Below, in pieces: positions 23,417-62,945 of a stretch of 64,000 nt of DNA (positions within the stretch are counted from its first letter, which is position 1; each line of letters opens with the position of its first letter). This DNA is from Glycera tridactyla (Eukaryota): contig OZ286471.1 in NCBI GenBank assembly GCA_965644265.1, positions 50,406,001-50,470,000 on the forward strand, written 5' to 3'. The position numbers were made by a program, and so were the translations under genes. Under the pieces are notes generated by a model. It ran no database searches, was not told the DNA's origin, and was given only the letters and a program-made list of their open reading frames with translations.

Positions 23417-23698
23417 CATGGTGATAATGATGATGATGCTGACGATGATCATGATGATACGATATTAATGCTGCTGATGGTGATGATGATGATGTTGCTG
23501 CTTATGATGGTGATNNNNNNNNNNNNNNNNNNNNNNNNNNNNNNNNNNNNNNNNNNNNNNNNNNNNNNNNNNNNNNNNNNNNNNNNNNNNNNNNNNNNNN
23601 NNNNNNNNNNNNNNNNNNNNNNNNNNNNNNNNNNNNNNNNNNNNNNNNNNNNNNNNNNNNNNNNNNNNNNNNNNNNNTTGCTGCTGATGCTGCTGTTG

Positions 23699-25868: not shown

Positions 25869-26089
25869 NNNNNNNNNNNNNNNNNNNNNNNNNNNNNNNN
25901 NNNNNNNNNNNNNNNNNNNNNNNNNNNNNNNNNNNNNNNNNNNNNNNNNNNNNNNNNNNNNNNNNNNNNNNNNNNNNNNNNNNNNNNNNNNNNNNNNNNN
26001 NNNNNNNNNNNNNNNNNNNNNNNNNNNNNNNNNNNNNNNNNNNNNNNNNNNNNNNNNNNNNNNNNNNNNNNNNNNNNNNNNNNNNNNNN
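25869..26089. other. Assembly gap (N)
   Basis: Run of N. Confidence 1.
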
Positions 26090-32449: not shown

Positions 32450-32615
32450 NNNNNNNNNNNNNNNNNNNNNNNNNNNNNNNNNNNNNNNNNNNNNNNNNNN
32501 NNNNNNNNNNNNNNNNNNNNNNNNNNNNNNNNNNNNNNNNNNNNNNNNNNNNNNNNNNNNNNNNNNNNNNNNNNNNNNNNNNNNNNNNNNNNNNNNNNNN
32601 NNNNNNNNNNNNNNN
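32450..32615. other. Assembly gap (N) within a decayed GATG/GATA repeat
   Basis: Run of N. Confidence 1.
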
Positions 32616-34139: not shown

Positions 34140-35090
34140 ACACGAGAGCCCTGTCCTAACAGTTAGCCTACATTGACAAAAAAAGTAACAGTACCACCCT
34201 GATTATGTCATCCGGCCCTGTGTCTGTGGTACGTTGCATGCCTAGATGGCACAAGTCATTGGCACTGCATGATACCTGGCACAGGTGTACTGCTGATATA
34301 TCAGGTGTTTCCTACATGAGATCCCTGTCCTCCGTGTCTACTGACAATTACATGATGTTGATAAAAAGTAAACAGTACTGAATTTGTCAGCCGACCCTGT
34401 GCCTGTGGTAAATCGCAAGCCTAGATGGCACAAGTCATTGGCACTGCGAGATGATGGCACTGGTGTTTTTGTTGATCTATCTGGTATTGCCTACACGAGA
34501 GCCCTGCCCTCCTGGTTAATGACGGCTAGACCAAAAAGATAAAATTCATCAGTAATACTCTGATCTGGTCAATCGACCTGATGTCTGATGAATGAAGCAT
34601 ATCTAGATGACACAAGTCATTGACATTGCATTGACGCCTGAATCCAGTGTACTATTAAGACAGACGGTGTGGTCTACACAAGAGCCTTGTGTCCGCGGTA
34701 CGTCGCATGACTAGATGGCACAATCCATTGGCACTGTCCTCCGGATCTACTGACGACTAGACGAAGCTGATAAAACCTAACAGTGCCACCCCGAATGTGT
34801 GATCCGACCCTGTGCCTGTGGTACGTCGCATGTCTAGATGGCATAGGTCATTGGCACTGCGTGATGCTTGGCACTGGTGTACTGCTGATATGTCCGGTGT
34901 TATCTACCAAAGAGCCCTGTCCACACGGTCTACTGACAACTATAAGAAGTTGACGAAATTAAACAGTACGACACTCATGCCTGTGGCATGTCACAAGCCT
35001 TAGATGGCACAAGTCATTGGTGCTGTGTGATGCCTGACACTGGTGTACTGCTGATGTATTCAGTGTCGCCTATACGAGAGCCCTGTCTTC
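34140..35090. repeat. Diverged tandem array, ~180-bp unit, about 5-6 copies
   Basis: Core ctagatggcacaagtcattggcactgc at 34242, 34421, 34603, 34711, 34834, ~35000. Confidence 0.85.
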
Positions 35091-36555
35091 CGGGTCCACA
35101 GGGAGTCACCTATGAGTCAGCGACTTGAAACTAAAATCCCATGACCCGAACCAGAGCCCGATGTATGTCACGAATCATCTCAAGAGCAAATGGCGGCAAA
35201 CCTTGGACAGATGGCGGCAAACCTTGGATAAACCTGGCCACCACAACAAGCACAGAAAAGCGGCCTAGGTGACACAAGTCACTGGCAGCTTCCCCCTGCC
35301 ATGGACCTAACCTAAACTCTACCATCAGAACGAAATCACATTACAGACATCATATTGACGACACATGCAGTGGTTGGTGGACATTCCCTACAACATGTGT
35401 GTCTAAAAAACGTATAGACTGCCTAATCCTCTGTCTGAATGTAAATGAAGTATCTGGTGTCTGTATTATATCCGAAAGTATGAAATATTTGTGTGACATG
35501 TAGGTGAAATGCATCGATCAATCTGCACTTCTATGAATATGTTCATACCAGTTGGTACCCACAAAATCACATTGAAAGCGTACGTATGTAAGCTTGTCGG
35601 TGGTGGAATTTAACAGTACCATCCCAAATGTGTCATCCTGCCCTATATTGTAGCAGTACTACATCTCTGTGAAATATTATCCTGTTCCATCTCTGTGAAA
35701 TACCATAATGTCCACGTTGTCCTGATCATCCTCTACCTTTCCTTCTCAGCATTGTAGAGTACCAGAATACAATCGCCTGTAATCACTAATTGATCATTCT
35801 ATTTTGTCAGCTTTTCTGGTGCCCATTCCTCATGTATGGACTGTGTCGACACGGATATCCTACCCTAAGCCAAATGACACTGCTGACATCTCTGAACACT
35901 TGAAACTCACAATTGCTACCTCAAAGAATAAATTTTCTTACTTTCTTTTCTTGGAAAAATGCATACACACACATATATATATCCTGTACTACTATTGTGA
36001 TAGATAATATCTGTGATTGCATATACTATATCGTTGCTGCCTCCGCCGTCCCCACATGCAATATTTTGACATCCCATGGTTGTAAACTTACTGCAGTCTG
36101 AAGAAATGTGTAATGGCACTTTTGTGGCATCAGGGTGTGCAACACGGCAATCGAAAAAGTGTGGATAGGCTGAGCCTCCACCAAATTCAAAAGAAGATAG
36201 CTCAAACCTACATCCGTACCTACTTTCTGCATAATGCTTGAATAATCTTGAACTGGTACAACCTTCTAATATCCCTCATATTGACTAAAATTCACAGAAA
36301 TTCTAGAACAGACAATCTAAATGGATTCACAAAAACATAACGGCCCGGTCGGAAACTATATATACACTTACATCCAGGCACAATCCAAAACACCATCAAC
36401 CCAACAACCAGGGGCCAGACCCTCGCGCGCGTTTGTCCTGTTATATACCACGCTGACAGGCAGCCTAATTTTTGCCTGCCCCTATCACCGGTGTGCTGTA
36501 CATATGTTACCCAGTTATTTGTTTCTTTTTTTTTTGTTTGCTTGCTCATTGTTAG

Positions 36556-39500
36556 AAACTGTGATTGTTTTCCCCACTCCCTCCCCAAACACTGACTTAG
36601 ACTACTCCATCCAAGCACTAGCAAATATGAAAAACTTGGTTTCGGATTTCTCAATATCCGAAGCTTAATCAGAAAATTGGATGATGTAATTAATGCACCT
36701 TCTGACCAATAGTAAGTTAAATTTCCCAGCCCTTTCAGAAACTTTCTTGAACTATAGTATCCCAGACAGTGAACTAATGATCCCTGGCTATATGATGTGC
36801 CAAGCAGACCGAACAATGACTAGTGGCAAGTGCGGTTGTGGTGGACTTATTGTTTATACTGACACAAAATATGAATTTACCCAAATTGAAAATAGTCACT
36901 ATGTATCGCCACATCTGGAGATATTCTGGATGGAACTCAAGCTACCACACACACGAATCACCTATATAGCCAGTGTGTATCGCCCACCAGATGGCAGTAA
37001 TAACATTGCAGTAAATGAGCTTGAGGAAAGTATCCGACGTCTTGAACCCGAGTACTACTCAGATTTATTTATTCTTGGAGATCTGAATATTGACTTGAAT
37101 AAAAGAAACTTAGCTAGTGAACGTCTTCGAAATTTTGAAAATCGCCATCAACTTACTCAGACGGTAAAAAACCCAACGCAGGTAACAGATTCCACAGCAA
37201 CCCTTATTGACCATATCTGGTGCAACAATAGAACAAAATTTTTCCATACGGGCACTGTCAACCCCGGTCTCAGTGACCACTTCCTAATCTATACATTCAG
37301 ACAGAGAACAAGGCTCAGCAAGGAGAGGCATTTGTTAACCTTTAGATCAACAAAAAATTTCGAAAAGGCTGCTTTCAACAAGGACGTCGAAATCTGGTGT
37401 AACGGAGCAGATGAAGAAGGTCTAGATGAAACACTAAAGAATCTCAATATAATGTTTGAATCGGTCTTGGATAGACACATACCTATAACACATAAATCCA
37501 GGCAACAATGCACCCTGGGCAACAAGGACCTTTCAAGACTGGGTCGACCGGAGAACCCACTGGTCAAACCATTTTCAGCAGTCACAAGATCGAGCTCACC
37601 CAGAACGCAAGCATCACTGCATACTTGAATGCTAAGAACTGCGTGAGAAACTTAAGAGGGGGTACCTAGACAAGAAAATTCAGGAAGCGGATGGGGACAG
37701 CCAAAAGTTATGGAACGTATTCCGCTCATTTTGGCTTGAAGCCCAAAGCGATACCAGTGTAATCACTATGCTAGAGGGGTGTGAAACTGAACATGAAAGT
37801 GCCACAACCCTGAATGACGATTTTGTTGAAATTGGACACGAACTTGCCAAAAACATATCCCCTACTGAAATTGAAAAGCCCAGAATATTGCCTGCGTCGT
37901 TGAAATGGGACCTGAGGCAAATTGACCCCAGCACAGTAAAGAAGGCCATCATGAGACTAAAATCGTCTGGAGCGAGTGCAGAAGACCCTTTCAGTAACAA
38001 CTATCTCAAAATGGCATGCGAAGGCCTGACAAGGACCCTGACAAAAATTATCAATAGATCACTCATGTCAAACTACTTTCCCCTATCATTGAAGAGAGCA
38101 ATAGTGACACCCATCCCTAAGAAAAAGAGCGGAAAGGTACCAGTCGACTTCCGCCCTATCTTGGTCCTTCCCAGCATGGGAAAATTGGTGGAAAGGATTG
38201 TCCACGACCAATGCACAAAATTACCAGAGGAAACATACAAACTGTCGGAAGCCCAGTCGGGGTTCAGGAAGCACCACTCGACCATCACCTGTCTTGCATC
38301 TTTCAGTGAAAATCTATATACAGTTATTGACAAAGGCATGATGGTCGGGGTGGTGTCCTGGACCTCGCCAAGGCATTCGACACTGTGGACCACGAAATCC
38401 TTCAGAATGACCTAGTCAATATCGGCCTAAGTGAGAATACCAGTGACTGGTTCAACAGTTACCTCTCATCCAGGGCCTAAGCCACTCGCTTTAACAAGTC
38501 TGTGTCAAATTTTAGAAATGTGCTATGTGGGGTGCCCCAGGGGTCAATCCTGGGGCCCCTACTTTTCAGCTGGTATGTCAACAGTGTACCATTATGCCTC
38601 GATCATGCAAATGTCTCCATGTACGCGGATGATACCGCTATATATGTATGTGACAGTGACCTAGATATTATTTGCCAGAAACTAGAGCACGATCTGTCGA
38701 ACTTACAACAGTTTTTCAAATGCAAAAAAATTAGCCTCAACCTTGCGAAAACCCAATGTTTATTTGTTGGAACTCAATCACGTCTACAAGCCAATGACAG
38801 TGACTGCTCTATTTTGGGGACAACTCTCGGGATCAAACAAATGACCTGCATTAAATATCTGGGAATATTTATCGACTCCCATCTATCTTTTACTGTGCAT
38901 ATTGATCACATTATCAGGAATCTGCGGGCACATACTGCCCAATTGAGGCAAGCTAGACGATTAATGAACCTACAATCGGCGTGACAGTTGGCTCTGTCAG
39001 TTATTCTATCGGCCGTCAACTACGGAAATGTAATATACGGAGGTGCCTCAAAGACGAACCTAACCAAACAAGATAAAGCATATCACGAGCTCTTGCAGGT
39101 GATCGCAATGAAACCGGCTCGCACACAGACGAGCGACCTTCTCAAAGCTTGCAATTTGAACTCATTGGCCACAACGAGAGAAAAACAGCTCCAACCGGAA
39201 TTCTGTAAGTTGAAAATGGAGGAAACATCAAATCAGCTATACAACCAATACAGAGAATATATACCACCTATTTCCCAGAATCAGATGCGAACAAGGTCAG
39301 TTGTGCGACAAGTTTTGATTATCCCTAGGAGTCGCACTGAAAAAGGGAAACAGTCATTTCTCTCCCGTGGAATAAATACATGGAACCGAAGGCCAAAACG
39401 AGTGTTTGATGCACCATCAACCAGTGCAGATAGACACTCTTTAAAGCGGTACTATAGCAAGAATGAGATGTTGTAATGAAATTGTGAACCTCGTGTCGGC

Positions 39501-41276: not shown

Positions 41277-41409
41277 NNNNNNNNNNNNNNNNNNNNNNNN
41301 NNNNNNNNNNNNNNNNNNNNNNNNNNNNNNNNNNNNNNNNNNNNNNNNNNNNNNNNNNNNNNNNNNNNNNNNNNNNNNNNNNNNNNNNNNNNNNNNNNNN
41401 NNNNNNNNN
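41277..41409. other. Assembly gap (N)
   Basis: Run of N. Confidence 1.
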
Positions 41410-43362: not shown

Positions 43363-43854
43363 ATGGCAACCAGCATAACGGCCAATGAGGCGACCATTAT
43401 GCATTCTATATCTGGATCACTTCGGAACGATGAAGATCACGACGACACCCTTACATCTAGTATTACGAGCGAAAATAGTTTTGAAGTTGGATCTACACAA
43501 GACGAACCCAAGATGGCTGACACCCCCCGTATACCAAGGCAGGTTAAGCGTGACGCCGATGATCTTACACCCACCAACGACAAAGACCGTAAACCACGTA
43601 ATAGAGTTACAGAAGCTGCCATTGCATTAGAGATGAATAACGGTAAGGCAGATGTTACATTAATAGATACTCTACTCAGTGACTGTGACTTTCTCAATGA
43701 AAGCTTCGATGATGATGATTTCCCACCTGATCCTACCCCAGCAGAAGGACCAGGCACTTCGCTATCACCTTTGCCCGAGGTCACGCATGTTACCCCCGGG
43801 GGGTTGGCAGACAATATTAATAGCGAGAGTCCACCCGATGATGATCTATTGTTT
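43363..43854 (+). pseudogene. LINE ORF1, 5' half (164 codons, acidic/disordered), broken by the Ngaro insertion
   Basis: ATG-initiated open frame running into the insertion at ...DDDLLF; continues in frame at 51115 (DSPTASST...). Confidence 0.8.
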
Positions 43855-44490
43855 TTTATCAAATTCCCAAATACCGGCTTGGTCTCAAGCCTCCTTTAAA
43901 TCACCAAGAGGCTTGAACAGTCGTCCAACCTAAGAAAAATCCCCTATTTGTTTGTGAATGTAAATAATCAGCTTTCATTTCTCAAGTATTGAAAAACCCA
44001 AACACAAGAATTTATAAACAAAATGATTGGCATTTTATTTTTCAAAATGTGTGCCTCTGGACTCATCATGAGGCAACAATTATAATCCTCGGAGAAAACA
44101 ATAGTGCCCAGAGGCACACCAACCAGACACTTCAGGTGTCGACCAAGCTTGCTTACAAGCGAAATATGCAGTATGTCATACTATGAATAACCCTCCTGGC
44201 CAATTGCTAGTGGTTCAATTGCATAATTATTTTATCCCGTTCAATTGCATAATTAGCAATTGCATTGCTAGTAACCAAAGCTAATTGCCAGGAAAGGCTA
44301 ATCGGAATTTTGTTAACAAAAGTAGGTTTGTTAAACACATAACATCATTAACATTTATTTAACTGGTGATACAATAATTGATGACGGTATACAATCGACA
44401 AAGCCCCATGATCGCAGATGGTGAAAGGATTCATACAGATGATCAAGAAATCGTATAGGATGCCATTATGACTTCTCAGCCGGATGCCCC
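43855..44490 (-). repeat. Split direct repeat B2 (636 bp), 3' terminus of the Ngaro element
   Basis: Second copy of B; contains sense-strand AATAAA at 44034-44039 and 44353-44358. Confidence 0.95.
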
Positions 44491-44527
44491 CAAAAAGGGG
44501 AGGTGAAATAGGGGGATGGTGGAGGGT

Positions 44528-44833
44528 GAAGATTTTCAGAAGTGAGGCCGACAAATGGCCGACAGCCGCTTTTATACTCAGGAATCAGCGCCCCCTTTTT
44601 ACATCAATTCCTGCAACAAAAATCTTTATATGAAAAATATTGCATATAACATAATATAAATAAGAAGGAAGCTTATTAAATAAGCAATTAAATTATATGA
44701 GACAAAAAATGAGTAAATCAAAAAGGTCACGTGTCACCATACATCTAGCGGCGACAAAAGGAACTAAGATTTAAGTGGTCTTGTTGAGTCATTTCCAAAA
44801 AATGAATTTTCCCCCCTTTGTCGGAAAATAAGA
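44528..44833 (-). repeat. Split direct repeat A2 (306 bp)
   Basis: Second copy of A, abutting B1 through the TTT core at 44834-44836. Confidence 0.95.
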
Positions 44834-44836
44834 TTT

Positions 44837-45472
44837 TTTATCAAATTCCCAAATACCGGCTTGGTCTCAAGCCTCCTTTAAATCACCAAGAGGCTTGAAC
44901 AGTCGTCCAACCTAAGAAAAATCCCCTATTTGTTTGTGAATGTAAATAATCAGCTTTCATTTCTCAAGTATTGAAAAACCCAAACACAAGAATTTATAAA
45001 CAAAATGATTGGCATTTTATTTTTCAAAATGTGTGCCTCTGGACTCATCATGAGGCAACAATTATAATCCTCGGAGAAAACAATAGTGCCCAGAGGCACA
45101 CCAACCAGACACTTCAGGTGTCGACCAAGCTTGCTTACAAGCGAAATATGCAGTATGTCATACTATGAATAACCCTCCTGGCCAATTGCTAGTGGTTCAA
45201 TTGCATAATTATTTTATCCCGTTCAATTGCATAATTAGCAATTGCATTGCTAGTAACCAAAGCTAATTGCCAGGAAAGGCTAATCGGAATTTTGTTAACA
45301 AAAGTAGGTTTGTTAAACACATAACATCATTAACATTTATTTAACTGGTGATACAATAATTGATGACGGTATACAATCGACAAAGCCCCATGATCGCAGA
45401 TGGTGAAAGGATTCATACAGATGATCAAGAAATCGTATAGGATGCCATTATGACTTCTCAGCCGGATGCCCC
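44837..45472 (-). repeat. Split direct repeat B1 (636 bp)
   Basis: tttatcaaattccc...cggatgcccc matches 43855-44490 (offset 982); begins 6 nt after the YR stop codon. Confidence 0.95.
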
Positions 45473-45478
45473 ACAAAG

Positions 45479-46471
45479 CTACTTATAGCCATCCGGCCCA
45501 TCCAAAGAAACTAACGCTGGACGGATATATGCTTTAAAAGCGTCAGAACACCATCTTCCTTTCAATCTAATGATTTCATTGGAGACACCCTCTGAAACCC
45601 AATCGGTGCACCTTCCAATACGCAATGAATGACTGGAGAACTTTTCTTTATTATCAAAGAAAGGGGAAAGCTTACGGATCCAAGCATTAACATACCTGCT
45701 GGTAACAGGTAAACCATTAATAATGAAAAGGGGGCCAGGATCTAGGCCCCTGAATTTTAGGTAGCGTTGCATATGAATGACTGGGCAAAAAGTAGAATCC
45801 GAAGAAGGTCTAATGATGAAAGATCTTGGTCCTTTAGAAAATTTGTAAGACTGGATGTTGAGCCTATAGCATAAACCTGCAGTAGAATGAACTTCCGAAA
45901 TGTCTTTGAGACAAAGAAAATGCTTGAAAAGATCACTAGATTTAGCATACTCAGAGACTCTTAAGCAAGCCGTATAGGCCCACAAAAACATAGCTTTTAG
46001 CAACGACACCTCAAAAGCTGATAAATTGAAAGCATCAAGAGCTAATATAAGCACACACAATTTATTCTTGTCCAAGGCAGATCTTTTGTCAGAAGTTAAA
46101 CCCGGGTCCTTGGCTAAACCTGCCAACATTCTATTAACAACATAACTTTTACAGTAGTCTTCTTGATGGTTCATTTTGAAACCATGAGATATAGCCGAAA
46201 GCCTGGATTTAATAGAAGTTACCTTCAGGCCTTTAGCTGACAAAAAGGCAACGTATAACGATATGGTATCACAAGATAAAGGCATGCCTACCTCGTTCAA
46301 AAAGGAACCAAAATCGCACCAAGCGTGTGAGTAATTCTTCCATGTGGAAGATGCAAATGACTTATGCACCAGATGATCTACCAAGGCCCAGAGATCATTG
46401 GGTTGAAATGATCCGTTACCAAAACTGGATGGATCGCCAATCCAGCCTCCTTGAGTTTTTCCTGTGAACAT
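45479..46471 (-). CDS. Tyrosine recombinase (integrase) of the Ngaro element, 330 aa
   Basis: Catalytic set intact: CLRVSE (R), SYKFSK (K), HSLRIG (HxxR), GRW (W), AYIR (Y); N-terminal STWKNY...SIKSRLSAI binding domain. Confidence 0.95.
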   Translation of the reverse strand: MFTGKTQGGWIGDPSSFGNGSFQPNDLWALVDHLVHKSFASSTWKNYSHAWCDFGSFLNEVGMPLSCDTISLYVAFLSAKGLKVTSIKSRLSAISHGFKMNHQEDYCKSYVVNRMLAGLAKDPGLTSDKRSALDKNKLCVLILALDAFNLSAFEVSLLKAMFLWAYTACLRVSEYAKSSDLFKHFLCLKDISEVHSTAGLCYRLNIQSYKFSKGPRSFIIRPSSDSTFCPVIHMQRYLKFRGLDPGPLFIINGLPVTSRYVNAWIRKLSPFFDNKEKFSSHSLRIGRCTDWVSEGVSNEIIRLKGRWCSDAFKAYIRPALVSLDGPDGYK

Positions 46472-48069
46472 AAGTTACGAGAAATAAGATCCGGAACAAT
46501 GTTATCAGATCCAGGAATATGGACCGCTGAAAAATCAATGTCATTATAAAGCGTGAAAAGCATGATATGGCGCATTATGCTCATAAGTTCTGAATTCTTA
46601 GCAGATCTCTTATTAATGACATCGACCACTGCATGGTTGTCACAATGAAAAATCACGTGTTTATGTTTTAAGGCAAGGCGAAAGGTCATGATAGCAACTA
46701 AAATAGGATAAAATTCCAAATATGCTATGTTCATGTTGGACCAACCTTCAGGGTATTTTAGGTAAAACCATAAATTTCTAAATACTACGCCAGCTCCCTG
46801 TTTGCATGCATCAGAGGCAATGTGTTCTGGAGATGTACGACTCATAGTGATATCTCTCAAATACGAGAAACCGTTGTAGTTTGATAAAAACTCACGCCAC
46901 ATTTCTAAATCCTTTTGTAAAGCCACAGAAAAAGTGACTTGATGAATTGGATTAGACAGACCAATGGTAGCGTTAATGAGACCTCTCATGAATGATTTAC
47001 CTGGTTTTATCAAGGAGGTAGCCCAGTTGAGCTTACCAATCAAGGATCGTAGAGTACCAAAGGAAACACAATGAGAAATCAAAATGCTATCAATTTCATC
47101 AGCATATTTTCTCAACTTGTCAACTGGGATTTTTGCGAAACCTTGTGGAACGTTGAGTTCGATACCTAGAAAGGATAGGACTTGAGACGGATACTCGGTT
47201 TTCTTTGGGCAAAGAGGGATTCCTACCTCATCACAAAAATGTTGAAAAGATTGCAAACATTTCAAACATTCATCATATCCTTTAGCTGCGAAACAGAAAT
47301 CATCAATCATATGTGAGACGAAGGGTATACCCAAGCGATTTTGACATATCCAATGCAAAGCTGACGAAAATCTTTCGAATATACGACAAGATGATCTGCA
47401 TCCCATTGCTAAACACTTATTAATGTAAAACTCATCACCAAGTCGAAGGCCTAGAAGGTGAAATTGATTTGGAGAGACAGGCAAAATTCTGAAAGCCGAC
47501 TTTATGTCTGTCTTACATAAATAGGTATCTTTTCCGATGTCTTTAATAAATTGAATTACGGAGAAAACTGTAGTATATTGTACCGACGCCTCACTATCTG
47601 GAATATTTGCATTAATGGATAAATGATAATAAGGAGCCGATAAATTGTGAATGAGTCGAAACGAACCAGGCTCTCTTTTTGGCACTATAGAGATAGGGGA
47701 AACTTGTAAATTAACGAAAGGAGGTTCAGAAAAAGGTCCAGCTATACGCCCAAGAGAAACATCCAATGATATAAGTTCTCGTGCCTCTTGAAAATATTCT
47801 TGAACGGAAAAAGAGTTACGACCTCTAAAAGCAGGAGAAGTTCCAGAAAAACCTATATCGAAACCGTTTTTGAGGCCAGAAATGACAAAATCGGCCTCAC
47901 CTTGGTTATAACCAATAAGGTATTCATTTATCCGTTGAAACTTGATGGGAGTCGTTATTTGCAAAAGGCTTTCTCTTGATATTGTCAGATTTTTCTGTAA
48001 CTCCTGATGACTCATTCCTACATAAATAAATAGGGTGTTTGCCATTACAATTCGGACAACAGTGTTCAT
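46378..48069 (-). CDS. pol: Reverse transcriptase + RNase H (DIRS/Ngaro type), 563 aa
   Basis: VSPISIVPKREPGSFRLIHNLS, KTDIKSAFRILP, LAMGCRSSCRIFE, HMIDDF, FLGIEL; RNase H acidic residues in IASDA, YLEFYP, HCDNHAVV, GSDNIVPDLISR. Confidence 0.95.
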   Translation of the reverse strand: MNTVVRIVMANTLFIYVGMSHQELQKNLTISRESLLQITTPIKFQRINEYLIGYNQGEADFVISGLKNGFDIGFSGTSPAFRGRNSFSVQEYFQEARELISLDVSLGRIAGPFSEPPFVNLQVSPISIVPKREPGSFRLIHNLSAPYYHLSINANIPDSEASVQYTTVFSVIQFIKDIGKDTYLCKTDIKSAFRILPVSPNQFHLLGLRLGDEFYINKCLAMGCRSSCRIFERFSSALHWICQNRLGIPFVSHMIDDFCFAAKGYDECLKCLQSFQHFCDEVGIPLCPKKTEYPSQVLSFLGIELNVPQGFAKIPVDKLRKYADEIDSILISHCVSFGTLRSLIGKLNWATSLIKPGKSFMRGLINATIGLSNPIHQVTFSVALQKDLEMWREFLSNYNGFSYLRDITMSRTSPEHIASDACKQGAGVVFRNLWFYLKYPEGWSNMNIAYLEFYPILVAIMTFRLALKHKHVIFHCDNHAVVDVINKRSAKNSELMSIMRHIMLFTLYNDIDFSAVHIPGSDNIVPDLISRNLCSQEKLKEAGLAIHPVLVTDHFNPMISGPW

Positions 48070-49840
48070 ATGTACATTTCTGAAACATACACTTCTTATC
48101 TTGGGCGTGATAATATTGACAGAAACCCGGTTGTATTCGTGATTTGTTAGACTTTGCTTGATTATTTTTATTGGAAGATCCTTCAGTGACTCTGGGAGAT
48201 TTCATAGCCTTTTGGTGTAATACAGCGTGAAATGTATCCCAGGGAAAAGGTGTGATCATTTGGGACCTCAAAGATCGAAAATTCTCATCATAGAATTTAA
48301 AATTACCTCCCTCAGAATCAATTTCACGAACTTCGGCAATATATGCTAGCAACTGTCTACCTTCTCTAGCTTTAACTACTTCAGACTTGAAAGGATGTTG
48401 GTTGTATATATTTTGAAATATCAAAAAGGCCTCATCCCAGTCGTGTATGTTTCTTATAAACTTTCTTTTCTTAGCAAGGACAAACTGACCCGACTTACCG
48501 TCAACAACATAATGCTGACGTGAAATCTTTTCAGCCTGTAATAAATCAGCCAGTTCAATGTATTTGTCCTGCCAGATATTAACTTTAGTATCAATATCAA
48601 TATGAAAACCGATGGGTAATCCTCCCGTAATGACATTACGGGCATTAGGATCTCTAGACATACCTATCTCCTCATCAGTATAGCCAGAACGAATGGGACT
48701 AAAAGGAGACAGTATTTTGTGTGCTGAAGGGCCAGAATCAGGTGAATCTCTGAAACCCATGGCATTGGCTGCCGAATGTAAGGAATTGCCCATGGAAGTA
48801 TCACGACCACTATTTCCTCGTTTCATACTTTCTAAAACAGCATTCATTTGTAAGTGATTATACACAGCGTTTTGCTGCTGGTCAACAGAGACATTGTTCT
48901 GGCTCGAAACCGAAGAAATAACCTGAGCATTGGGAATAGCGAAAGAGTCTCTGAATACTGAGGCCGTAGGCCGAGATGAATTATGACTGTCCGTTTGGCA
49001 GTAATTGTTCGTCGTTATATTGTCGTTAACTTTAAATTTATTATTAGAAAAAGCATTTCCCGTAATATGAGGTCTCCATAAATTGTTAACATTGTGAACT
49101 CGTTCATCCGTATCACTAGGAAAATTATTAGGTCCATGAAAAACAGAGTTCGAATGATGAAACTGCGACATACCTCCAGATGTAATATTCGAAGCAGGGT
49201 CAGACGACCTATCTGAGGAAGGAGGCTGGGGCCAGGCGGCCAGGCCATCGATTCTGGATTGCATTTGCTGTAACATGGTATTGACAGAAGACATCTGCTG
49301 CATAGCAAGTTGAATGGTAGACCGCATTTCTTGTTGAATTCCATGGAATGGTAACTGTTGAACAGAGTTATTCATATTAGGCAATGATCTGGAAGTGCTA
49401 GTGACATTTTTGACAGGAACTGAGGCAGCACTGGAAATACTGTGCCAATGAGCATTGTTGTGTGAAGCATTAGCTGCTGGACGACCAATACCACCCATCA
49501 CTGGTCGATTGGAAATGGAACAAGCTCTGTTGGCGGAACCACGAAACACATCAAGCTTAGGTCCTAAGCTGTTATTGGTATTAGGAACAGGCGTCCCTGC
49601 TGAACACTGGGACACAAGGTTCGGGTTCGAAACTTGACCACAAGGAATCTGAGACACTGGTGAACTATTAATAGCTTCAACAGGCGTTGAACCACGAGAC
49701 AAAAGTTCGATGAAAGGATCGTTCGTTACCTGGCCAGGCGGCGGTCCAAAAGCTGATATATCCGGCGGTCTACCACTCGCAGCAGGCTTCTCCCATGTTT
49801 GAGAATTAATGAAGTCATCTGGGCAAACCCTTTTCGCCAT
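47924..49840 (-). CDS. gag: gag-like ORF of the Ngaro element (~638 aa from the first ATG)
   Basis: Long N/S/Q/P-rich N-terminus; conserved-looking C-terminal half (KVNIWQDKYIELADLL...WDEAFLIF...FYDENFR); C-terminal Cys/His cluster FCQYYHAQDKKCMFQKCTYEHCCPNCNGKHPIYLC. The ORF track starts at TTG 49846; the first ATG is at 49840. Confidence 0.85.
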   Translation of the reverse strand: MAKRVCPDDFINSQTWEKPAASGRPPDISAFGPPPGQVTNDPFIELLSRGSTPVEAINSSPVSQIPCGQVSNPNLVSQCSAGTPVPNTNNSLGPKLDVFRGSANRACSISNRPVMGGIGRPAANASHNNAHWHSISSAASVPVKNVTSTSRSLPNMNNSVQQLPFHGIQQEMRSTIQLAMQQMSSVNTMLQQMQSRIDGLAAWPQPPSSDRSSDPASNITSGGMSQFHHSNSVFHGPNNFPSDTDERVHNVNNLWRPHITGNAFSNNKFKVNDNITTNNYCQTDSHNSSRPTASVFRDSFAIPNAQVISSVSSQNNVSVDQQQNAVYNHLQMNAVLESMKRGNSGRDTSMGNSLHSAANAMGFRDSPDSGPSAHKILSPFSPIRSGYTDEEIGMSRDPNARNVITGGLPIGFHIDIDTKVNIWQDKYIELADLLQAEKISRQHYVVDGKSGQFVLAKKRKFIRNIHDWDEAFLIFQNIYNQHPFKSEVVKAREGRQLLAYIAEVREIDSEGGNFKFYDENFRSLRSQMITPFPWDTFHAVLHQKAMKSPRVTEGSSNKNNQAKSNKSRIQPGFCQYYHAQDKKCMFQKCTYEHCCPNCNGKHPIYLCRNESSGVTEKSDNIKRKPFANNDSHQVSTDK

Positions 49841-50801
49841 CTGCAATCAAATTATATGAGACGAGCAAAAAATTGTTTAAAATAAAAAGAAGGCCAAAAC
49901 AAAAGACGACAGACGCCAAATATCAGTCAAAAAGTCGTAGAAAAATTGGTCATAAGGTATTGAATTTTTTGACCCTCCCCCCTCCCTTCTCCCCCCCCCC
50001 CCTCGTTTTTGCTCACTTCTGAACTACAAAGGTTTGTTAAACCCGCGGACCACTCGACCAAGCGAGGGAAGACTCGAAAGAGCTGCCTGCCTGATTTCTT
50101 TAGTGTATCTGTGGAAATGCTTAGAGTGAACTTTAGGATGAACCCAATCTGAACTCCAAGACTTGACTGTAGAAGGCACACCCTCCATGAGGGATCCGAA
50201 ACCGCGAATATGATAGTAATCTATACCCAACACACCATCACAAAGTTCCTCGGTGTATTTGTTGAAGAACATGGCACGTTCCTTAAAATTAGGATGGCCG
50301 ATAAGTCTATCAATGCAGGATAATAAAACCACTACCTGAACTTGACATGCCTTGCGAACCTTTTGAGCGAAGTCAAAATAATCCATAGCCAATTCTTGGG
50401 GGTCAACGAAATCCAAAGTCAAATCATTACCTCCCAAATTAACAATAAGCATGTCCGGCTTAAGCACTGCCAGTGCTAAAATTTCGTCAGCGACCTCCTC
50501 ATTATAATCATAATCCTTCAGATACATGCACTGACGAAAGTTAACAGTGCTGAAAGATTCGTCTAAGTCTAGGAAGTCCGCATATAATTGTCCTCTAGAA
50601 ACGTAACCATTGTCCATTTCACGATGTAAGCCTTGCTCGGTCAACCGTTCTAGAAGGAAGTCTTCTTGTTGCTTCAAAAGCGAATGCCCTAAATAACACG
50701 CGGTAGGAGGGCGGCCAAGCCATTGTTCTATAGGAATGTATGGTGTTTTGCCCGAGAACCATGCCATACTGAAATATACTATACTAGAGTGGTCCGCGTA
50801 C
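49841..50801 (-). other. Predicted 961-nt intron containing the whole SGNH ORF
   Basis: Donor GAAG|GTACGC lies just past A1. Acceptor has a long pyrimidine tract then ttgattgcag|ATGGCG, with the AG directly abutting the gag ATG. Confidence 0.6.
50024..50767 (-). CDS. SGNH/GDSL-family hydrolase (esterase-like), 247 aa, first ORF of the Ngaro element
   Basis: Block I CYLGHSLL (Ser29), block III LIVNLGGNDL, block V SSDWVHP (DxxH). ATG in strong Kozak context (agtATGG). Lies inside the element, between A1 and gag. Confidence 0.85.
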   Translation of the reverse strand: MAWFSGKTPYIPIEQWLGRPPTACYLGHSLLKQQEDFLLERLTEQGLHREMDNGYVSRGQLYADFLDLDESFSTVNFRQCMYLKDYDYNEEVADEILALAVLKPDMLIVNLGGNDLTLDFVDPQELAMDYFDFAQKVRKACQVQVVVLLSCIDRLIGHPNFKERAMFFNKYTEELCDGVLGIDYYHIRGFGSLMEGVPSTVKSWSSDWVHPKVHSKHFHRYTKEIRQAALSSLPSLGRVVRGFNKPL

Positions 50802-50805
50802 CTTC

Positions 50806-51111
50806 GAAGATTTTCAGAAGTGAGGCCGACAAATGGCCGACAGCCGCTTTTATACTCAGGAATCAGCGCCCCCTTTTTACATCAATTCCTGCAACAAAAA
50901 TCTTTATATGAAAAATATTGCATATAACATAATATAAATAAGAAGGAAGCTTATTAAATAAGCAATTAAATTATATGAGACAAAAAATGAGTAAATCAAA
51001 AAGGTCACGTGTCACCATACATCTAGCGGCGACAAAAGGAACTAAGATTTAAGTGGTCTTGTTGAGTCATTTCCAAAAAATGAATTTTCCCCCCTTTGTC
51101 GGAAAATAAGA
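50806..51111 (-). repeat. Split direct repeat A1 (306 bp), 5' terminus of the Ngaro element
   Basis: gaagattttcagaagtgagg...gtcggaaaataaga matches 44528-44833 (offset 6278); no difference seen on reading. Confidence 0.95.
50817..50854 (-). promoter_or_regulatory. Predicted Pol II core promoter in repeat A: TATAAAAG (50854-50847) and initiator TCACTTC (A+1 ~50821)
   Basis: Minus-strand TATAAAAG lies 33 nt upstream of a YYANWYY match; the same motif recurs in A2 (44569-44576). Prediction only. Confidence 0.55.
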
Positions 51112-51114
51112 TTT

Positions 51115-52665
51115 GACTCACCTACAGCTAGTAGTACACAACATGACAAGCATAACAAACATGAAACTAACTCACCCACTCGCGCACACGAAGCCACTCA
51201 CGAGAAACTGACATCCCCTCAATTTGAGGACGAACTTGATTCCCCCTTGAAGCGCACTGGTGAACCAACTTCCGAGTCAGAACCTGGCCGTGCATTTGAT
51301 GTTCCCCAACTCAAGCATGTTTATGATAAAATGTCGAGTAATTTCACTACATCTATTGGGAAGCTCAGGAAAGAACTCTTAATGCAAATGGACGAGAGCT
51401 TACGTGATTTTCAAGCTGCCATGAACAATCTCATCAAACATGAAATTGCTAGAGCTTTTCAACAAAAAGTACCTGATATGGTCCGCATAGCCACGGCAGC
51501 TGACGTCAAAAATACGATAGATCCCATCCTCCATGACCGTATTAAGCCCCTCGAAGCCTTGACTAACAATACTGCAACCACTGTGCATCAGCATGAACAG
51601 ATACTGAATGACCTACAACGGCATATTGACGAGACCATCGATAGGAAAGTCATCGAGAAAATGGCAAACCTATCTACCTCATGTAACTGTAATGAAAGAT
51701 TTGACCGAATTAGTGGCGTGGTTAATCTCCATGGAAATGAAATCTGTAGGCTTGATGGTGACATGGACCAAATCCAAAAGAATGACCGCCTATGTGTGGT
51801 AATATTTGATGGCTTGGAACATAAAAGGGGGGTCCCACTCCACCAGCAAGTCTACGACGTAATCACAAACTCCCTGAAGGTTGAACTTCGACTGAAAGAC
51901 ATAATACATGCACATAGATTTGGACCTGATGGTAAAGATGGGCTCCCAAAATCAGTGATGGTTCGTCTCTCCTGCCCCGCTATTAGAAGGGATGTAGTCA
52001 GAGCTAAGGGGCTTCTTAAGGGAGGCAGAATCTTCATTAGAGAACACCTGACTAATTACTCTAGCAGCATATACTATCAAGCACGTGCAGCCAAACAGAA
52101 ACGACTGCTGCACAGCACCTGGACCCAAGATGGCTCAGTTTATGCTCTCACGACTGCTGACAGCAGACGCACAGTCATCAATAGTTACGATGAGATCATG
52201 AAACTCAATAGAAGTAAAAATCAAGGGGACAAAAACCATGGAGACCAAAACGGCTTTGAGACTGTAGTGAAGCAACAAGATGGCCTAAATGCACCACCTA
52301 AACAGGCAAACTCCAAGGCGCCACCACCTACACAAGCTAAGCCACCACCACCACCTGAACCAATGCTTCCCGAAAATAACGAATCAGGACTACCCGCAAA
52401 CCCCCGTTCAGTTCGAGCTAACCCTCCAGGGAGGAAACAAAAGTCGCTACTCGAAATGATGAGTACACCAGGCAATAAAGCTGGCACCCTCCCACGAGCG
52501 AAGCCAAAAAACGAGACGAGCAAACTCGCCCTCCCGAAACCTACGTTCGGCAATGCCACCAGAGGTCGTGGTAGGGGTTTAACACATGCGACGATCGTCG
52601 GCGCACCTGGCGCGAATCAAGTCCATACGAATAACATGTATGGCATATTTGGTGCTTCCACCTAG
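51115..52665 (+). pseudogene. LINE ORF1, 3' half (516 aa): coiled-coil plus RRM/CTD-like RNA-binding region
   Basis: Frame is open from 51115 (no stop before the listed TTG at 51247). Heptad-like helical region, then VVIFDGLE...IIHAHRFG...KSVMVRL...LKGGRIFIREHLT...WTQDGSVY, typical of LINE ORF1 proteins. Confidence 0.85.
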
Positions 52666-54196
52666 ACAATCAACAGTCATGGCGTACATGTTGTGACCCA
52701 TCAAGACCTACCAGCGACTTATCGACATAAAATCCATGAGTACCTTTCTAAAAGTATTACACACCCCGAATGAGGTGTGGGATATTTGACTCATACCATT
52801 TATTAATAAAGTAGGAAAGTCAAATTGAGGCTGAGAAGATTGCGGCAGAACATAATGAAATCAAACATGAGCACTGTCCGATTTTCACGAGACGTCGCAT
52901 ACTAAATGCCTATGGTAACCCCAATGTCCTATTTATAGGCTCGAGTCAGGTGGAACAACTGGAGGATTTCCATATATATCTGATACACGGACACACACGC
53001 ACCGCAACATGACTGATTATATGGGAAAAACAATTCAGAACTCGAATATGAAGTTAAGGGCATGCTGAACGACATGCTGATATGATATTCGAGTGCTAAA
53101 GTATGCTATGTCCCCATTTAAAGGTAGCCAACTTGGTCCCCTCATACCAAATCATTTGCACTCAGACTTGACTTAGTTGTGACCCGTGACTTGAGACTTG
53201 CTGGCCATCACCAAGTGGAAGCTATCTACAGTAATTGAATCTTCAATAACATGTTTACTCTTGTGAGCAAGCGCAAGAGAAAGCAAAACCAGTATGGGAG
53301 TGTTATGAGAGGCATGATGGCACTTGACAACGTCCATCTGTGTGACACAAGCTATATCGGGCTGTCAAATAGCATCGTGGGGCAACTACTTGACATATGG
53401 GAAGGACTAGCTGGTAATGTGGACTACTTAGGCCCGTTGTGAACCAGACCAGACATCCCCACAAATGGACACAGGCGGACATTATCTGTCTCTGTTTCCA
53501 CCTAGCAATGACAGGAACATGTTCCCTACTTGTCACAACATCTATTGCCATCTGAAGGAATTACTAGTCACCTACTTTGCCACATAGTTGAATGTCTCAC
53601 AGTGCATATCTGAACTGACTCATAGCCAATCAGCTCTTCCATAAGTAATCAATATACTGATGCTGGCAGCATTCTGGATGGACGTTGGTTGGTCAGTAGC
53701 TTCTAGTTGCCTGATGGCTGCCTGATCTATGAAGCATCGACCTAATGTCCTGCCTGAATGTTGCCTACATCTACATCTATGCCTACATCCTCGTTTTCTC
53801 ACCTGTGCACTTCGCCCAGAATTGTAAACATATGATTCGTGGTTATTCATGTTCAATCTCCCAGCCGAACAATGATACTATGATTGTGGGACACGCCATC
53901 TTTTGACTCACGGCTCCGTGACACTAATCGCCGTATACCCCAAGAGTGGACTACAAGTTCAAGTAATCTATCTCATATCGCTCATATCGCTCATATAGTT
54001 CATATGGTGATAACTAGTCATACAATAGAACCTATCCTGCACTTGATGGCGATGAGAATATTGATGCTACTATATACTGACCAAATACCCAGTGTTGCCT
54101 GCCCCAAATTGCCCTGATGCAATAGTGACCATATCCATATAACACATAGCCAATAAGTGCAATTCTAATATTTATTCTCTCCCCGCTCTCGAATAT

Positions 54197-57160
54197 TTGC
54201 CCAAACTCATTGCAGCAAACTTCAAATATGACCCGTCGGAGTCAATTTATGAAACTACCTCTACTACAGTAGCAGCTGCCAAACTCTCTCAATATCCTGG
54301 TATAACCTTGGCATGTCTGAACATCAGAAGTTTAAGCAAGAGCCTTGCCGATGTCAAAATCTTTCTTCGCCAAAGTGACCTAGACTGCCTGGGTTTAGTA
54401 GAAACCTTCTTGAATACGAATACCATAGATAGTTCCCTACAGATAGCCAACTATATTATGCACAGACTTGACAGAAACAACCAAACCAATAAGACATCAG
54501 GGGGAGGTATTTGCCTATATTGTAAGGACCATTACAATTTTAGTTTTATTACTGATTGGGATCTTATTTGCGATGACCTTGAACTATGTTGGTGTAGACT
54601 TAAATTACCACAGACCAGACCGACGTATATTGCAATAGCATATAGGCCACCTAGTGGCAATATCACTAACGCTTTAGAACTCCTCGAACACAGACTAGTT
54701 GATATATATAGCAACCGAACAGCCGACGTGTGGATTTTGGGTGACATAAACATCAACCTACTGACGAATACCCCTTCTACCAAGAAATATCGCAACTTCC
54801 TCAAAACCCTTCACCTGGACCAATTAATTACGCAACCTACAAGAGTGACAAGAAACACACAAACTCTGATTGATCACATATTAACAAATCATAAAGAATT
54901 GAACCATTCATATGGAATCTTGGACTTGGGGCTAAGTGATCACACATTAGTCTATACAGTCAGGAAAAAACGTAAAATAAGCAAAAAGGGCAGTTTTATC
55001 CAAATAAGAAACTACAGGGATGTAAATATCAATAGTTTCAATCAAGCAGTTAGTGAACATGACTGGAGAGAACTTTTTGCCAGTGATTCAGTTGACAGAT
55101 GCTTAGAAATCTTCTACAATAATCTTATACCTATCTGCAATAGTTTCTGTCCGTGGAAAAATATACGCGCTCGCGACGAAAGGCCAGGATGGGTCAACAG
55201 TGAATACTTGAGCCATGTAGACAATAGAATCTATAGAAGTAAATGCTTCAGGCTTGATCCAACAGAAGAAAATGAAAGATTGAAAAAGGAATCACAACGA
55301 AACACAAATAGACTAAAGAAATCACTACAAAGAGAATATATCAGTAGTAAGCTTACCAATGTGTCTGATAATCCAAAACAACTATGGAGATTGATTAGGG
55401 AATTTTGGCCCAACAATAAGAGCCATACCACGATAAATAGAATCCAATCGGAAACGGACCAAAGTAAAATCGCTAACTTGTTAAATGAATTTTTCAGCAC
55501 CATTGGTCAAAAACTCAATGATGAATTCGACAATGACACATCTCACAACGGAACAATGTATAATGGAAATGTTAACATGCATACACCATTTACCTTCAAG
55601 CCTATACTTAAGAAAGAAATAACAGACATCATAAACAAAATGTTCGCATCCAAGAGCACTGGTAATGATGGGCTACCACCCACAATTATCAAATGGCTCG
55701 CCAATTCGATATCACCTATATTGGTACACATTTTCAATTTAAGTCTGTCAAATTCCACTTTCCCACAACAATGGAAGCAAGGTATCATTACTCCACTTTA
55801 CAAAGAAGGGCGTAGGGACAACCCATCAAATTACAGACCAATTACGGTCCTTGCCCCACTGAGCAAAGTACTTGAAAGACTTGCACATAATCAAATATCT
55901 GACTATCTTGACAGGCTTAATATTTTATGTGTAGAACAGGTGGGGTTCAGGAGGGGGCACTCCACTGTGACATGTCTGCTCCAGTTCTTGGACAAAATCT
56001 ACCTAGGACTGGAGCGGGGATGTCCCAGTGGAGTCCTCTTCCTGGACCTGCGCAAAGCCTTTGATACGGTTAATCATAGTATTTTATGCACGAAAATCCT
56101 CACCATGGGCATCGGACCAGTAGCCACAAATTGGATAAAATCTTATCTAGCTAATAGAACCTGTCGAACAAAGGTAAATGGTGTCTTATCAGATCCTCAA
56201 GTTGTCAATTGCGGTGTGCCCCAGGGTTCGATCCTGGGGCCACTCTTATTTACAATGTATGTGAATGATCTACCGCATCTATTTGATAATCCCAATGTAC
56301 ATCTATATGCTGATGACACTGCGCTATCCTATACATGTAATAACCCTGATGAACTTCAAAATATGTTAAATTATAATCTTGCATTAATAGGAGATTGGCT
56401 CAAGTGCAATAAATTGGAACTCAATGTGAAAAAAACTAAATACATGCTTTTTGGTACTCCAAAAATGTTGAAAACATTTGAAAATGTAGTAGTCGAGTAT
56501 GGGGGAGACAATATTGACAAAGTAGACCAGTTTAAATATCTTGGACTGATGCTGGACAATGGACTAAAATTCACTAAGCACGCTGAATATGTAAAGTCCA
56601 AAACTATTGGTAAGGTTAAATATCTCGGTAGACTGAGGCCTGTCATAAATCAGGAAACCGCTCTCATGCTCTACAAAAGCCTTGTCTCCCCCATATTCGA
56701 CTACTGCAACATAGTGTATGATAATCTCTTACAGAGAGACTCCAATATGCTCCAGAGGATTCAAAATTATGCAGCACGGATGATCCTCATGAGTGATAGA
56801 ACTACCCCTAGCTCTGTACTTCATGAGGAACTTAAACTCGACAAACTAAGCACCAGGCGGAAAAAACATGCAGGGGATTCTGTATTTAAAGCGTTAAAAA
56901 CTAACACTTTGCCCTGCAATATACGGAACATGTTGAAATATGTATCACTACGCCATAATAGAACCACAAGAACTGCCTCTAGGAATAATTTACAGATCCC
57001 ACGGCTAAGACTCACCAAATCAAAGGGAAATTTCATGTACAAGGGTCCCCACCTTTGGAATGATCTCAATTGTCAACTGAGGGAATCATGTTCGGTAGAC
57101 GTATTCAAGAAGGGAATTGGCAAAATAAGCAACCCATGGCAACTCGGCACGGTAACATAG
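54197..57160 (+). CDS. LINE ORF2: APE endonuclease + reverse transcriptase, ~987 aa, uninterrupted
   Basis: CLNIRSL, LVETFL, AYRPPSG, LGDININL, TLIDHI, LSDH; NYRPI, FLDLRKAFDTV, GVPQGSILGPLLF, LYADDTA, FKYLG. Starts at TTG; the first in-frame ATG is at codon 88. Confidence 0.93.
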   Translation: MPKLIAANFKYDPSESIYETTSTTVAAAKLSQYPGITLACLNIRSLSKSLADVKIFLRQSDLDCLGLVETFLNTNTIDSSLQIANYIMHRLDRNNQTNKTSGGGICLYCKDHYNFSFITDWDLICDDLELCWCRLKLPQTRPTYIAIAYRPPSGNITNALELLEHRLVDIYSNRTADVWILGDININLLTNTPSTKKYRNFLKTLHLDQLITQPTRVTRNTQTLIDHILTNHKELNHSYGILDLGLSDHTLVYTVRKKRKISKKGSFIQIRNYRDVNINSFNQAVSEHDWRELFASDSVDRCLEIFYNNLIPICNSFCPWKNIRARDERPGWVNSEYLSHVDNRIYRSKCFRLDPTEENERLKKESQRNTNRLKKSLQREYISSKLTNVSDNPKQLWRLIREFWPNNKSHTTINRIQSETDQSKIANLLNEFFSTIGQKLNDEFDNDTSHNGTMYNGNVNMHTPFTFKPILKKEITDIINKMFASKSTGNDGLPPTIIKWLANSISPILVHIFNLSLSNSTFPQQWKQGIITPLYKEGRRDNPSNYRPITVLAPLSKVLERLAHNQISDYLDRLNILCVEQVGFRRGHSTVTCLLQFLDKIYLGLERGCPSGVLFLDLRKAFDTVNHSILCTKILTMGIGPVATNWIKSYLANRTCRTKVNGVLSDPQVVNCGVPQGSILGPLLFTMYVNDLPHLFDNPNVHLYADDTALSYTCNNPDELQNMLNYNLALIGDWLKCNKLELNVKKTKYMLFGTPKMLKTFENVVVEYGGDNIDKVDQFKYLGLMLDNGLKFTKHAEYVKSKTIGKVKYLGRLRPVINQETALMLYKSLVSPIFDYCNIVYDNLLQRDSNMLQRIQNYAARMILMSDRTTPSSVLHEELKLDKLSTRRKKHAGDSVFKALKTNTLPCNIRNMLKYVSLRHNRTTRTASRNNLQIPRLRLTKSKGNFMYKGPHLWNDLNCQLRESCSVDVFKKGIGKISNPWQLGTVT

Positions 57161-62590: not shown

Positions 62591-62945
62591 GTCGATGAAG
62601 CTGTCAGTCAAACCTTGCTGAGCCTCGATCCGTTGCTCGTGGCATGGCAGATGAACTCGTACTTGTACATGACCAATTAGCACCATTGTGTCCACTCTTG
62701 GAACGTTTGGCACAAAACTGGAGTAATTTACAAGCTGGAAATACTTGCATCTGCTATATGTCAGTATATGAAGTCGATGAAGCTGTCAGTCAAACCTTGC
62801 TGAGCCTCGATCCGTTGCTCGTGGCATGGCAGATGAACTCGTACTTGTACATGACCAATTAGCACCATTGTGTCCACTCTTGGAACGTTTGGCACAAAAC
62901 TGGAGTAATTTACAAGCTGGAAATACTTGCATCTGCTATATGTCA
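62591..62945. repeat. Tandem duplication, 182-bp period
   Basis: gtcgatgaagctgtcagtc... at 62591 and 62773. Confidence 0.95.

Follow-up and report, generated by a model that had tools for sequence, protein, structure and literature searches.

The 64,000-nt stretch of DNA analyzed here (the window) contains a 7,263-bp Ngaro-type element on the minus strand that consists, in order, of the A1 repeat, an SGNH-fold ORF, gag, a reverse transcriptase/RNase H (RT/RH) ORF, a tyrosine recombinase (YR) ORF, the B1 and A2 repeats, a spacer and the B2 repeat. A1 is a 309-nt split direct repeat (50806-51114) that was delimited by its identity to A2 (44528-44836). The last three nucleotides of B1 (44834-45472) are A residues shared with the start of A2, which resembles a circle junction. 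A C-rich spacer of 37 nt (44491-44527) separates A2 from B2 (43852-44490), the element end; A2 and B2 were defined by repeat comparison. In a self-comparison, A1 equals A2 across all 309 nt, and B1 equals B2 across all 639 nt. Because both repeat pairs are identical, the insertion is young. No second copy of the element was found within the 64-kb window.

The element interrupts ORF1 of a plus-strand LINE. The 5' part of this ORF (43363-43851, 163 codons) is stop-free and in phase with the 3' part (51115-52665, 516 codons), which carries no esterase domain, and an open endonuclease-RT ORF of 1005 codons lies farther along the same strand (54143-57160). The trinucleotide AAA is common to the A1 start, the B1/A2 junction and the B2 end, and no target duplication is present, as is characteristic of the DIRS order. 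The AAA pattern agrees with the trinucleotide rule for integration of DIRS-order elements by their recombinase, as given in the available text of PMC7192593. Given that the LINE ORF1 is split in phase and that AAA is common to the junctions, the element ends are precise, and thus the SGNH ORF belongs to the element and not to its flank. The split LINE (43363-57160, plus strand) has an ORF1 of ~680 codons in total with a weak Baculo_FP match (E 0.097) and a 1.5-kb gap between its ORFs.

The remaining element ORFs are all on the minus strand. The gag-like ORF (47924-49840) encodes 638 residues with a Cys/His cluster at the C-terminus, and its look-alikes in the Atlas are eukaryotic hypothetical proteins, most commonly from Basidiomycota (score 0.96). 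The RT/RH ORF (46378-48069, 563 residues) matches RVT_1 (E 3.9e-11) and RVT_3 (E 1.2e-4) and is devoid of a methyltransferase domain: no Dam match was obtained at E<=1, and the tail past RNase H is short, as in Ngaro and not as in PAT elements. The YR ORF (45479-46471, 330 residues) displays the motifs LRVSE, HSLR, GRW and YIR and weakly matches the Phage_integrase and integrase SAM-domain families (E 0.04-0.2); the other two frames across it are open for at most 67 codons. The catalytic motifs of RT, RNase H and YR are all present. Therefore, the original prediction of four undisrupted ORFs is borne out (247, 638, 563 and 330 residues, all open), as is its Ngaro-type architecture; the element combines split direct repeats, gag, RT/RH and YR and has no methyltransferase. 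The terminal repeats are direct, not inverted as in DIRS1-like elements. The split-repeat order is the A1-ORFs-B1-A2-B2 order of Ngaro, and gag, RT/RNase H and YR (the last recognized by motifs and weak Pfam matches) occupy one strand with the internal repeats 3' of YR. By the structural criteria in the available part of PMC4157794, the predicted gene and repeat content is that of Ngaro and not of PAT or DIRS1, although the same source notes that a PAT lineage can mimic Ngaro after methyltransferase loss.

Several minor features accompany the ORFs and repeats. Donor-like sites at 47900 and 48498 (minus strand) are the best two of 307, and an acceptor at the YR start (46462) ranks 13 of 313. 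All three sites are in phase 1, each phase match having a 1-in-3 chance, and predicted splicing to 46462 could join 56 residues of the RT frame or 447 residues of Gag to YR, whose own ATG has a weak context. Two AATAAA signals on the minus strand are found in B (45341 and 45021 in B1, with equivalents in B2), and a full-length RNA would need to read through those of B1. The B repeats also contain a 12-bp inverted repeat (45101/45042 and 44119/44060) and a 14-nt palindrome (45303/44321).

Outside the element, the window contains two further frameshifted LINE remnants with RT matches, at 26535-28540 (minus strand) and at 36690-39476 (plus strand, also with an endonuclease match). Diverged tandem arrays with a period of ~165-182 nt occupy 16512-17301 and 34180-35099, near-identical duplications are located at 6221-7372 and 62591-62945, and none of the four N runs (23515-23677, 25869-26089, 32450-32615 and 41277-41409) falls within the element. 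No host gene was detected in the 62 of 152 long frames that were scanned. The window CpG o/e of 0.69 is consistent with the probable invertebrate host of the original prediction, as is the taxonomy of the SGNH look-alikes described below.

The SGNH ORF (50024-50767, minus strand) encodes 247 residues and lies, as originally claimed, between A1 (51114-50806) and gag (49840-47924). It carries GHSL (Ser29), GGND (residues 112-115) and DWVH (residues 207-210), which correspond to blocks I, III and V. The claim of a stand-alone SGNH-fold ORF in first position is upheld by both HMM and structure searches. The Pfam Lipase_GDSL_2 match has an E value of 1.2e-5 and is under the curated cut-off (26.3 vs 32.9 bits), and 52 of the 59 aligned proteins match this family at E<=0.01. 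A search of 1.84 billion representatives returned 78 matches at E<=0.001, the top four with 30-38% identity; 58 of the 78 were used for the alignment, with fragments, long-extension proteins and a few off-target matches, such as a repeat protein, omitted. With the 58 homologues as the alignment, the AlphaFold model reached a pLDDT of 93.9 and a pTM of 0.90; folding from the single sequence gave a pLDDT of only 34. The best structural match of the model is an SGNH acyltransferase (Z 16.1, rmsd 2.6 Å, 179 aligned residues), and 71 Foldseek matches were obtained at E<=0.001. In the modeled structure, the SGNH fold assignment exceeds chance. A phmmer search against the PDB gave nothing below E 0.8. 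The profile detected 4c1b, which we take to be the ZfL2-1 esterase of a LINE ORF1 protein, at E 3.3e-5 and bacterial GDSL proteins at E 3.7e-7, with PAF-AH matches of similar strength. Clusters of stand-alone SGNH look-alikes in the Atlas have 303, 65 and 55 members, mostly from Mollusca.

Other protein searches were less productive. A word-based search with the single SGNH protein as the query yielded none of 460 candidates; with the alignment, it matched two of 2673 near-length candidates and none of 8000 longer proteins, the latter being weak evidence against fusions. None of six window proteins looked up in the protein collection was present. The prokaryotic species-genome scan returned one weak locus (L001, an SGNH-like region of Bacillus canaveralius at 4703-5143 with 21% identity to the query), which is uninformative on origin. 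The four closest relatives (P0002-P0005) contain proline runs 25-40 residues past the domain, at the very end in three of them; these runs imply C-rich DNA at the position of the G-rich run that follows the stop in the present element.

Is the SGNH protein an active enzyme? S29, N114, D207 and H210 sit in conserved columns (53, 57, 56 and 55 of 59 rows, respectively), as in the canonical signature, and 53 of 57 full-length proteins retain all four residues at a mean column identity of 19%. Such retention despite divergence supports selection for catalysis across the predicted family. However, the original description of the protein as catalytically complete is overstated. The Ser-Asp-His triad and Asn114 are intact, but the block II Gly that contributes to the oxyanion hole in canonical enzymes is absent, residues 60-111 contain no Gly at all, and catalysis is relaxed in the clade. 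Tyr82 fills the alignment column in which 27 of 59 proteins have Gly, and Trp208 is found in no other of the 59 rows. The block II Gly is one of the four letters of SGNH and supplies a main-chain nitrogen (PMC10792757, available text). Judged by its residues, the protein is classed as an SGNH-fold protein and not as a canonical S-G-N-H enzyme. In the tree, it groups with P0002-P0005 (support 97/96) inside an 18-row clade (100/98), in which 17 of 18 rows lack the block II Gly and four have lost catalytic residues in two events, compared with none of the 39 full-length rows outside the clade. Four full-length relatives (P0005, P0014, P0031 and P0041) lack the catalytic Ser and His and are candidate pseudo-enzymes.

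The clade-specific losses raise the alternative that the SGNH domain is non-catalytic or barely catalytic and works, in the manner of Oskar's OSK domain, as a scaffold that binds RNA or a ligand; it would be translated from the template RNA, on which it would then act in cis. The protein itself weakly matches OSK (E 0.036), as do two of 59 members at E<=0.01; these matches point in the same direction, and Oskar is cited as a non-catalytic SGNH protein in the available text of PMC3905857. We nevertheless regard such a scaffold as improbable. All four catalytic residues are retained here and in 14 of 18 clade rows, and the main-chain nitrogen of block II (PMC10792757, available text) could be provided by another residue. 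Moreover, the protein is acidic, with a pI of 5.6 against a median of 9.2 for the 59 aligned proteins, which does not point to nucleic-acid binding. The predicted protein is most likely an esterase that is active but slow. It would act as an accessory short-chain acyl (acetyl) esterase, with a substrate on the element's particle or among host lipids or glycans, and would not be a core replication enzyme. Esterase activity has a precedent among retroelement SGNH proteins in ZfL2-1, with a kcat of 0.32/s on pNP acetate (PMC3905857, available text). The original prediction also proposed lipid or membrane binding. This idea draws weak support from the analogy to the LINE esterase, whose positively charged, putatively membrane-facing surface binds negatively charged phospholipids according to the same text, but no membrane segment is predicted here, and the predicted acidic charge does not support binding of the ZfL2-1 type.

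An SGNH ORF at the 5' end poses the problem of how gag is translated. A predicted TATA box (50854-50849, minus strand) and an initiator at ~50823-50821 were located in A1 by consensus and are putative promoter elements. Transcription would start near 50823, ~30 nt past the TATA box and near the A1 end. The TATA box recurs in A2, and a short spacer-B2 RNA could begin there. Sixteen more ATGs occur from the SGNH start to the gag start, and thus simple scanning to gag is excluded. A donor with its first intron base at 50801 (minus strand) is predicted and ranks 7 of 307 GT sites. The predicted acceptor (49841-49974, minus strand) is a 132-nt AG-free, pyrimidine-rich tract with CAG directly before the gag ATG. 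The AG-free run is the longest of 374 in the element; runs of at least 130 nt number only 12 of 7030 in the window on both strands, and AG is absent in ~0.7% of 20000 composition shuffles of the tract. The tract also provides the most pyrimidine-rich 40-nt windows between A1 and the YR stop. Scored with a short matrix, however, this acceptor comes only 49th of 313 sites; acceptor-like sites ahead of the ATGs of SGNH and RT come 135th and 84th, respectively, and are not claimed as splice sites. Two other candidate splicing signals, a donor-like site at 50016 (rank 15 of 307) and a G run considered as a splicing enhancer, were discounted, since complementarity to the start site and the spacer accounts for both.

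In the model proposed here, Gag would be translated from an RNA that is spliced between 50801 and 49841 and thereby loses the SGNH ORF, with a leader of 22 nt between the cap and the gag ATG. The unspliced RNA would encode the SGNH protein first and serve as the template; it must be the template because the DNA copy retains the SGNH segment. Gag might instead be reached with no splicing, by shunting across the base of the RNA stem described below, by an IRES in the U-rich stretch between the SGNH ORF and gag, or by a second promoter. The stem would bring the cap to within ~170 nt of the gag ATG, a geometry suited to shunting, which is known in caulimoviruses. These routes are unlikely in our estimation, given that AG exclusion right up to the base before the ATG is the signature of a splice acceptor and that no TATA-like hexamer occurs between the SGNH ORF and gag.

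The SGNH ORF lies in the loop of a 33-bp stem in which the predicted RNA 5' end pairs with the last codons of the ORF. The 5' arm (50787-50824, minus strand) covers the predicted donor and contributes to helices of 12, 2, 7 and 12 bp, and the 3' arm (50012-50055, minus strand) comprises the last SGNH codons, the stop and 12 further nt that form the complement of the predicted RNA 5' end. The duplex energy is -51.7 kcal/mol, compared with -34.2 kcal/mol for the next best among 1142 element windows and -38.3 kcal/mol for the best of 3818 unrelated windows. When the last 16 SGNH codons were recoded synonymously, only 8 of 3000 recodings paired as strongly with the unique leader, and one shuffle in 500 produced a 12-mer that could pair with the start region. 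The inner helix forms with P>=0.97 at all six folding boundaries, and the outer helices form with P 0.96-0.99 at five boundaries and P 0.39 at one. The whole region folds no better than shuffles (z -0.60), and Rfam returned no match. Because 12-nt inverted repeats are common in the element, only the position and nesting of this one count.

The stem is directly followed by an antisense copy of the A2-B2 spacer (49972-50011, minus strand; 40 nt) that resembles DIRS-1's internal complementary region (ICR) and whose ends match the spacer at 7/7 and 6/6 positions. It includes the longest purine run of the window (32 nt, 50004-49973). Only 6 of 20000 spacer shuffles score as well, and none of the 20000 matches the ends as well; by energy alone, the duplex (33-nt version) is no better than those of shuffled spacers (1101 of 2000). 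A single 52-nt stretch is thus the complement of two sites, the predicted 5' end of the RNA and, near the 3' end, the spacer. The stem would conceal the donor and the cap-proximal region, and its open and closed states would favor the mRNA and template fates, respectively. Together with the antisense spacer copy, it would hold the RNA 5' end beside the A2-B2 region, as the DIRS-1 ICR does for the ends of that element, and may thereby act both in splicing choice and in reverse transcription. However, simple self-priming does not regenerate A2-spacer-B2, and the replication mechanism is incomplete: the spacer sequence differs from its antisense copy, and the spacer must therefore be copied from its own template. 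The stem, the antisense spacer copy and the splice signals go beyond the original prediction, and the predicted splice signals would explain gag translation behind a 247-codon ORF.

Where did the SGNH ORF come from? A recent, functionless secondary insertion in this copy would be compatible with the single copy examined, but we consider it very improbable. Neither a target duplication nor poly(A) nor a pair of unique terminal repeats flanks the ORF, and its longest flanking direct repeat is 6 nt. The flanking 12-mer also occurs in A2; for this reason, the 12-nt inverted repeat was rejected as the terminal repeat of a DNA transposon, one arm belonging to A. The base usage is element-like, with a third-position T of 0.36 compared with 0.40-0.43 for the other three element ORFs and 0.27-0.31 for three LINE ORFs, and the last codons pair with the unique leader as noted above.

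A stronger contender, although we still hold it to be less than probable, is independent capture, which agrees with the data almost equally well. Here a LINE, a host gene or a bacterium would have supplied an SGNH coding sequence that has no kinship with the Xenopus hydrolase, and this sequence would have landed in the loop of a 5' hairpin that the lineage already possessed. In that case, the stem could predate the ORF. The capture scheme accommodates the ORF running into the hairpin 3' arm for its stop, as well as the last dozen residues, which fall outside the segment matched by most relatives. Furthermore, LTR, Penelope-like and LINE elements gained esterases separately (PMC5408684, available text). 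The Xenopus ORFs all overlap, as described in the accessible part of 10.1101/2021.08.05.455354, whereas none of 10 relatives with long N-extensions contains a YR C-terminus in another frame. This alternative-frame comparison relied on the 10 of 88 stored proteins with usable extensions; the best candidate overlaps scored 2.7 and 3.0 and were rejected, being equalled by 9 and 11 of 100 shuffles, and simulated true overlaps had medians of 8-17. Against capture, the profile is no closer to 4c1b than to the bacterial GDSL proteins, the interrupted LINE has no esterase, and the genome scan produced only the weak bacterial locus. In addition, LINE esterases carry GDS, but the nucleophile motif here is GHS, as in the amphibian Ngaro type.

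Relocation is another route. The 5' layout and the 3' layout of Xenopus are equal in circular order (SGNH-gag-RT-YR), and therefore either would turn into the other if the repeats moved along a circular or tandem intermediate. In the proposed relocation, YR-SGNH-[B|A]-gag would become YR-[B|A]-SGNH-gag by repeat movement on a circle. Permuted domain orders have also arisen in Penelope-like elements (PMC8557442, available text). We consider relocation slightly more likely than fresh capture, which is an argument and not a result. As a whole, the best explanation is a young, intact Ngaro element with its own SGNH-first ORF, expressed and copied by the splice and stem model, encoding a slow esterase and derived by relocation; we assign this reading a probability of roughly 0.55. 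A bolder version, which we deem unlikely, is that the element represents an invertebrate Ngaro lineage, undescribed and probably widespread, whose genes became circularly permuted relative to the repeats. Its template RNA would encode the esterase and not Gag, and its stem, with the first 12 nt of the RNA paired immediately past the esterase stop codon, would have the geometry of a self-primer beside a splint for the A2-B2 spacer. If this is true, the primer and the strand-transfer signals still missing for split-repeat YR retrotransposons would thereby be identified.

As far as checked, the SGNH-first layout is new, and an SGNH ORF in Ngaro is itself already known. The RNA stem around the ORF and the adjoining antisense spacer copy are new here and constitute the more surprising part. 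Neither an SGNH-first Ngaro nor such a stem was found in the available texts of the literature searched, with Repbase and Dfam consensus sequences outside that search. It is conceivable, if somewhat doubtful, that SGNH-first Ngaro elements are already known, being common in molluscs, annelids or cnidarians and present in Repbase, Dfam or papers. The mollusc-rich look-alike clusters are in keeping with this possibility, as are the abundance of Ngaro in Nematostella and Lottia (PMC4157794) and the finding that most Repbase 'DIRS' entries of a fungal study were Ngaro (PMC3783388), both as given in the available texts. However, the accessible part of the 2021 Xenopus work (10.1101/2021.08.05.455354) restricts the Ngaro hydrolase to amphibians and to a position after YR, the texts available show three ORFs for the elements of amphioxus and Cafeteria, and Ngaro and SGNH occur together only in the Xenopus work within the literature searched.

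The element bears on two wider issues. SGNH esterases recur in LINE, Penelope-like, LTR and Ngaro elements with a role that is still unproven, and a clean knock-out is possible in this element, which is intact and very young and keeps the esterase as a gene of its own in first place. The second issue is the priming of reverse transcription and the expression of three or four ORFs in split-repeat YR retrotransposons, whose replication model of annealing between repeats has been tested only for DIRS-1 in the available part of the literature covered; the stem, the spacer complement and the acceptor define precisely which nucleotides to mutate. Should the 5' layout prove homologous to the 3' layout, the two would show that gene order changes by the movement of ends on a circular intermediate.

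Several known systems offer points of comparison. Fission-yeast Tf1 uses a self-made RNA primer, and the first 12 nt of the predicted RNA, which pair just behind the loop here, show a similar self-priming geometry. Among Ngaro elements, those of Xenopus are similar in their split direct repeats, gag, RT/RH, YR, absence of a methyltransferase and possession of a fourth ORF whose SGNH domain has no proven function (10.1101/2021.08.05.455354, available part; a Ngaro hydrolase ORF is also mentioned in the available texts of PMC6681497 and PMC7192593). The difference in layout that was originally claimed is real: in Xenopus, the hydrolase ORF follows YR and overlaps, whereas here it precedes gag, overlaps nothing and is enclosed in an RNA stem, the comparison being one of layout only. 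The amphioxus, Cafeteria and fungal Ngaro elements (PMC2632668, PMC8547959 and PMC3783388) likewise combine gag, RT/RH and YR with direct repeats, and those of Cafeteria and fungi share the A1-ORFs-B1-A2-B2 order; in contrast, the available texts describe three ORFs and no hydrolase ORF for all three.

Outside Ngaro, the ORF1 esterases of L2, CR1 and RTEX LINEs, such as ZfL2-1 (PMC3905857, available text), share the SGNH fold with the present protein, and in both cases it is the 5' end of a retroelement RNA that encodes this fold. The ZfL2-1 esterase has a block II Gly and a putative membrane face that is basic, and it forms one domain of a multi-domain ORF1p that also contains a coiled coil, whereas the protein predicted here is separate and acidic, precedes a separate Gag and has a GHS nucleophile motif. 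The bdelloid Vesta LTR elements and Terminons (PMC5408684 and PMC6431247, available texts) also contain a stand-alone accessory GDSL/SGNH ORF, but they belong to other element classes, and the Vesta GDSL ORF3 is downstream of pol. Finally, the DIRS-1 ICR, which is required for retrotransposition, lies inside its element and is complementary to two terminal sequences far away from it, as is the stretch described here (PMC7192593, available text). DIRS-1 differs in that its repeats are inverted and its ICR is located near the right end, whereas the corresponding stretch of the present element lies 5' of gag and has a putative function.
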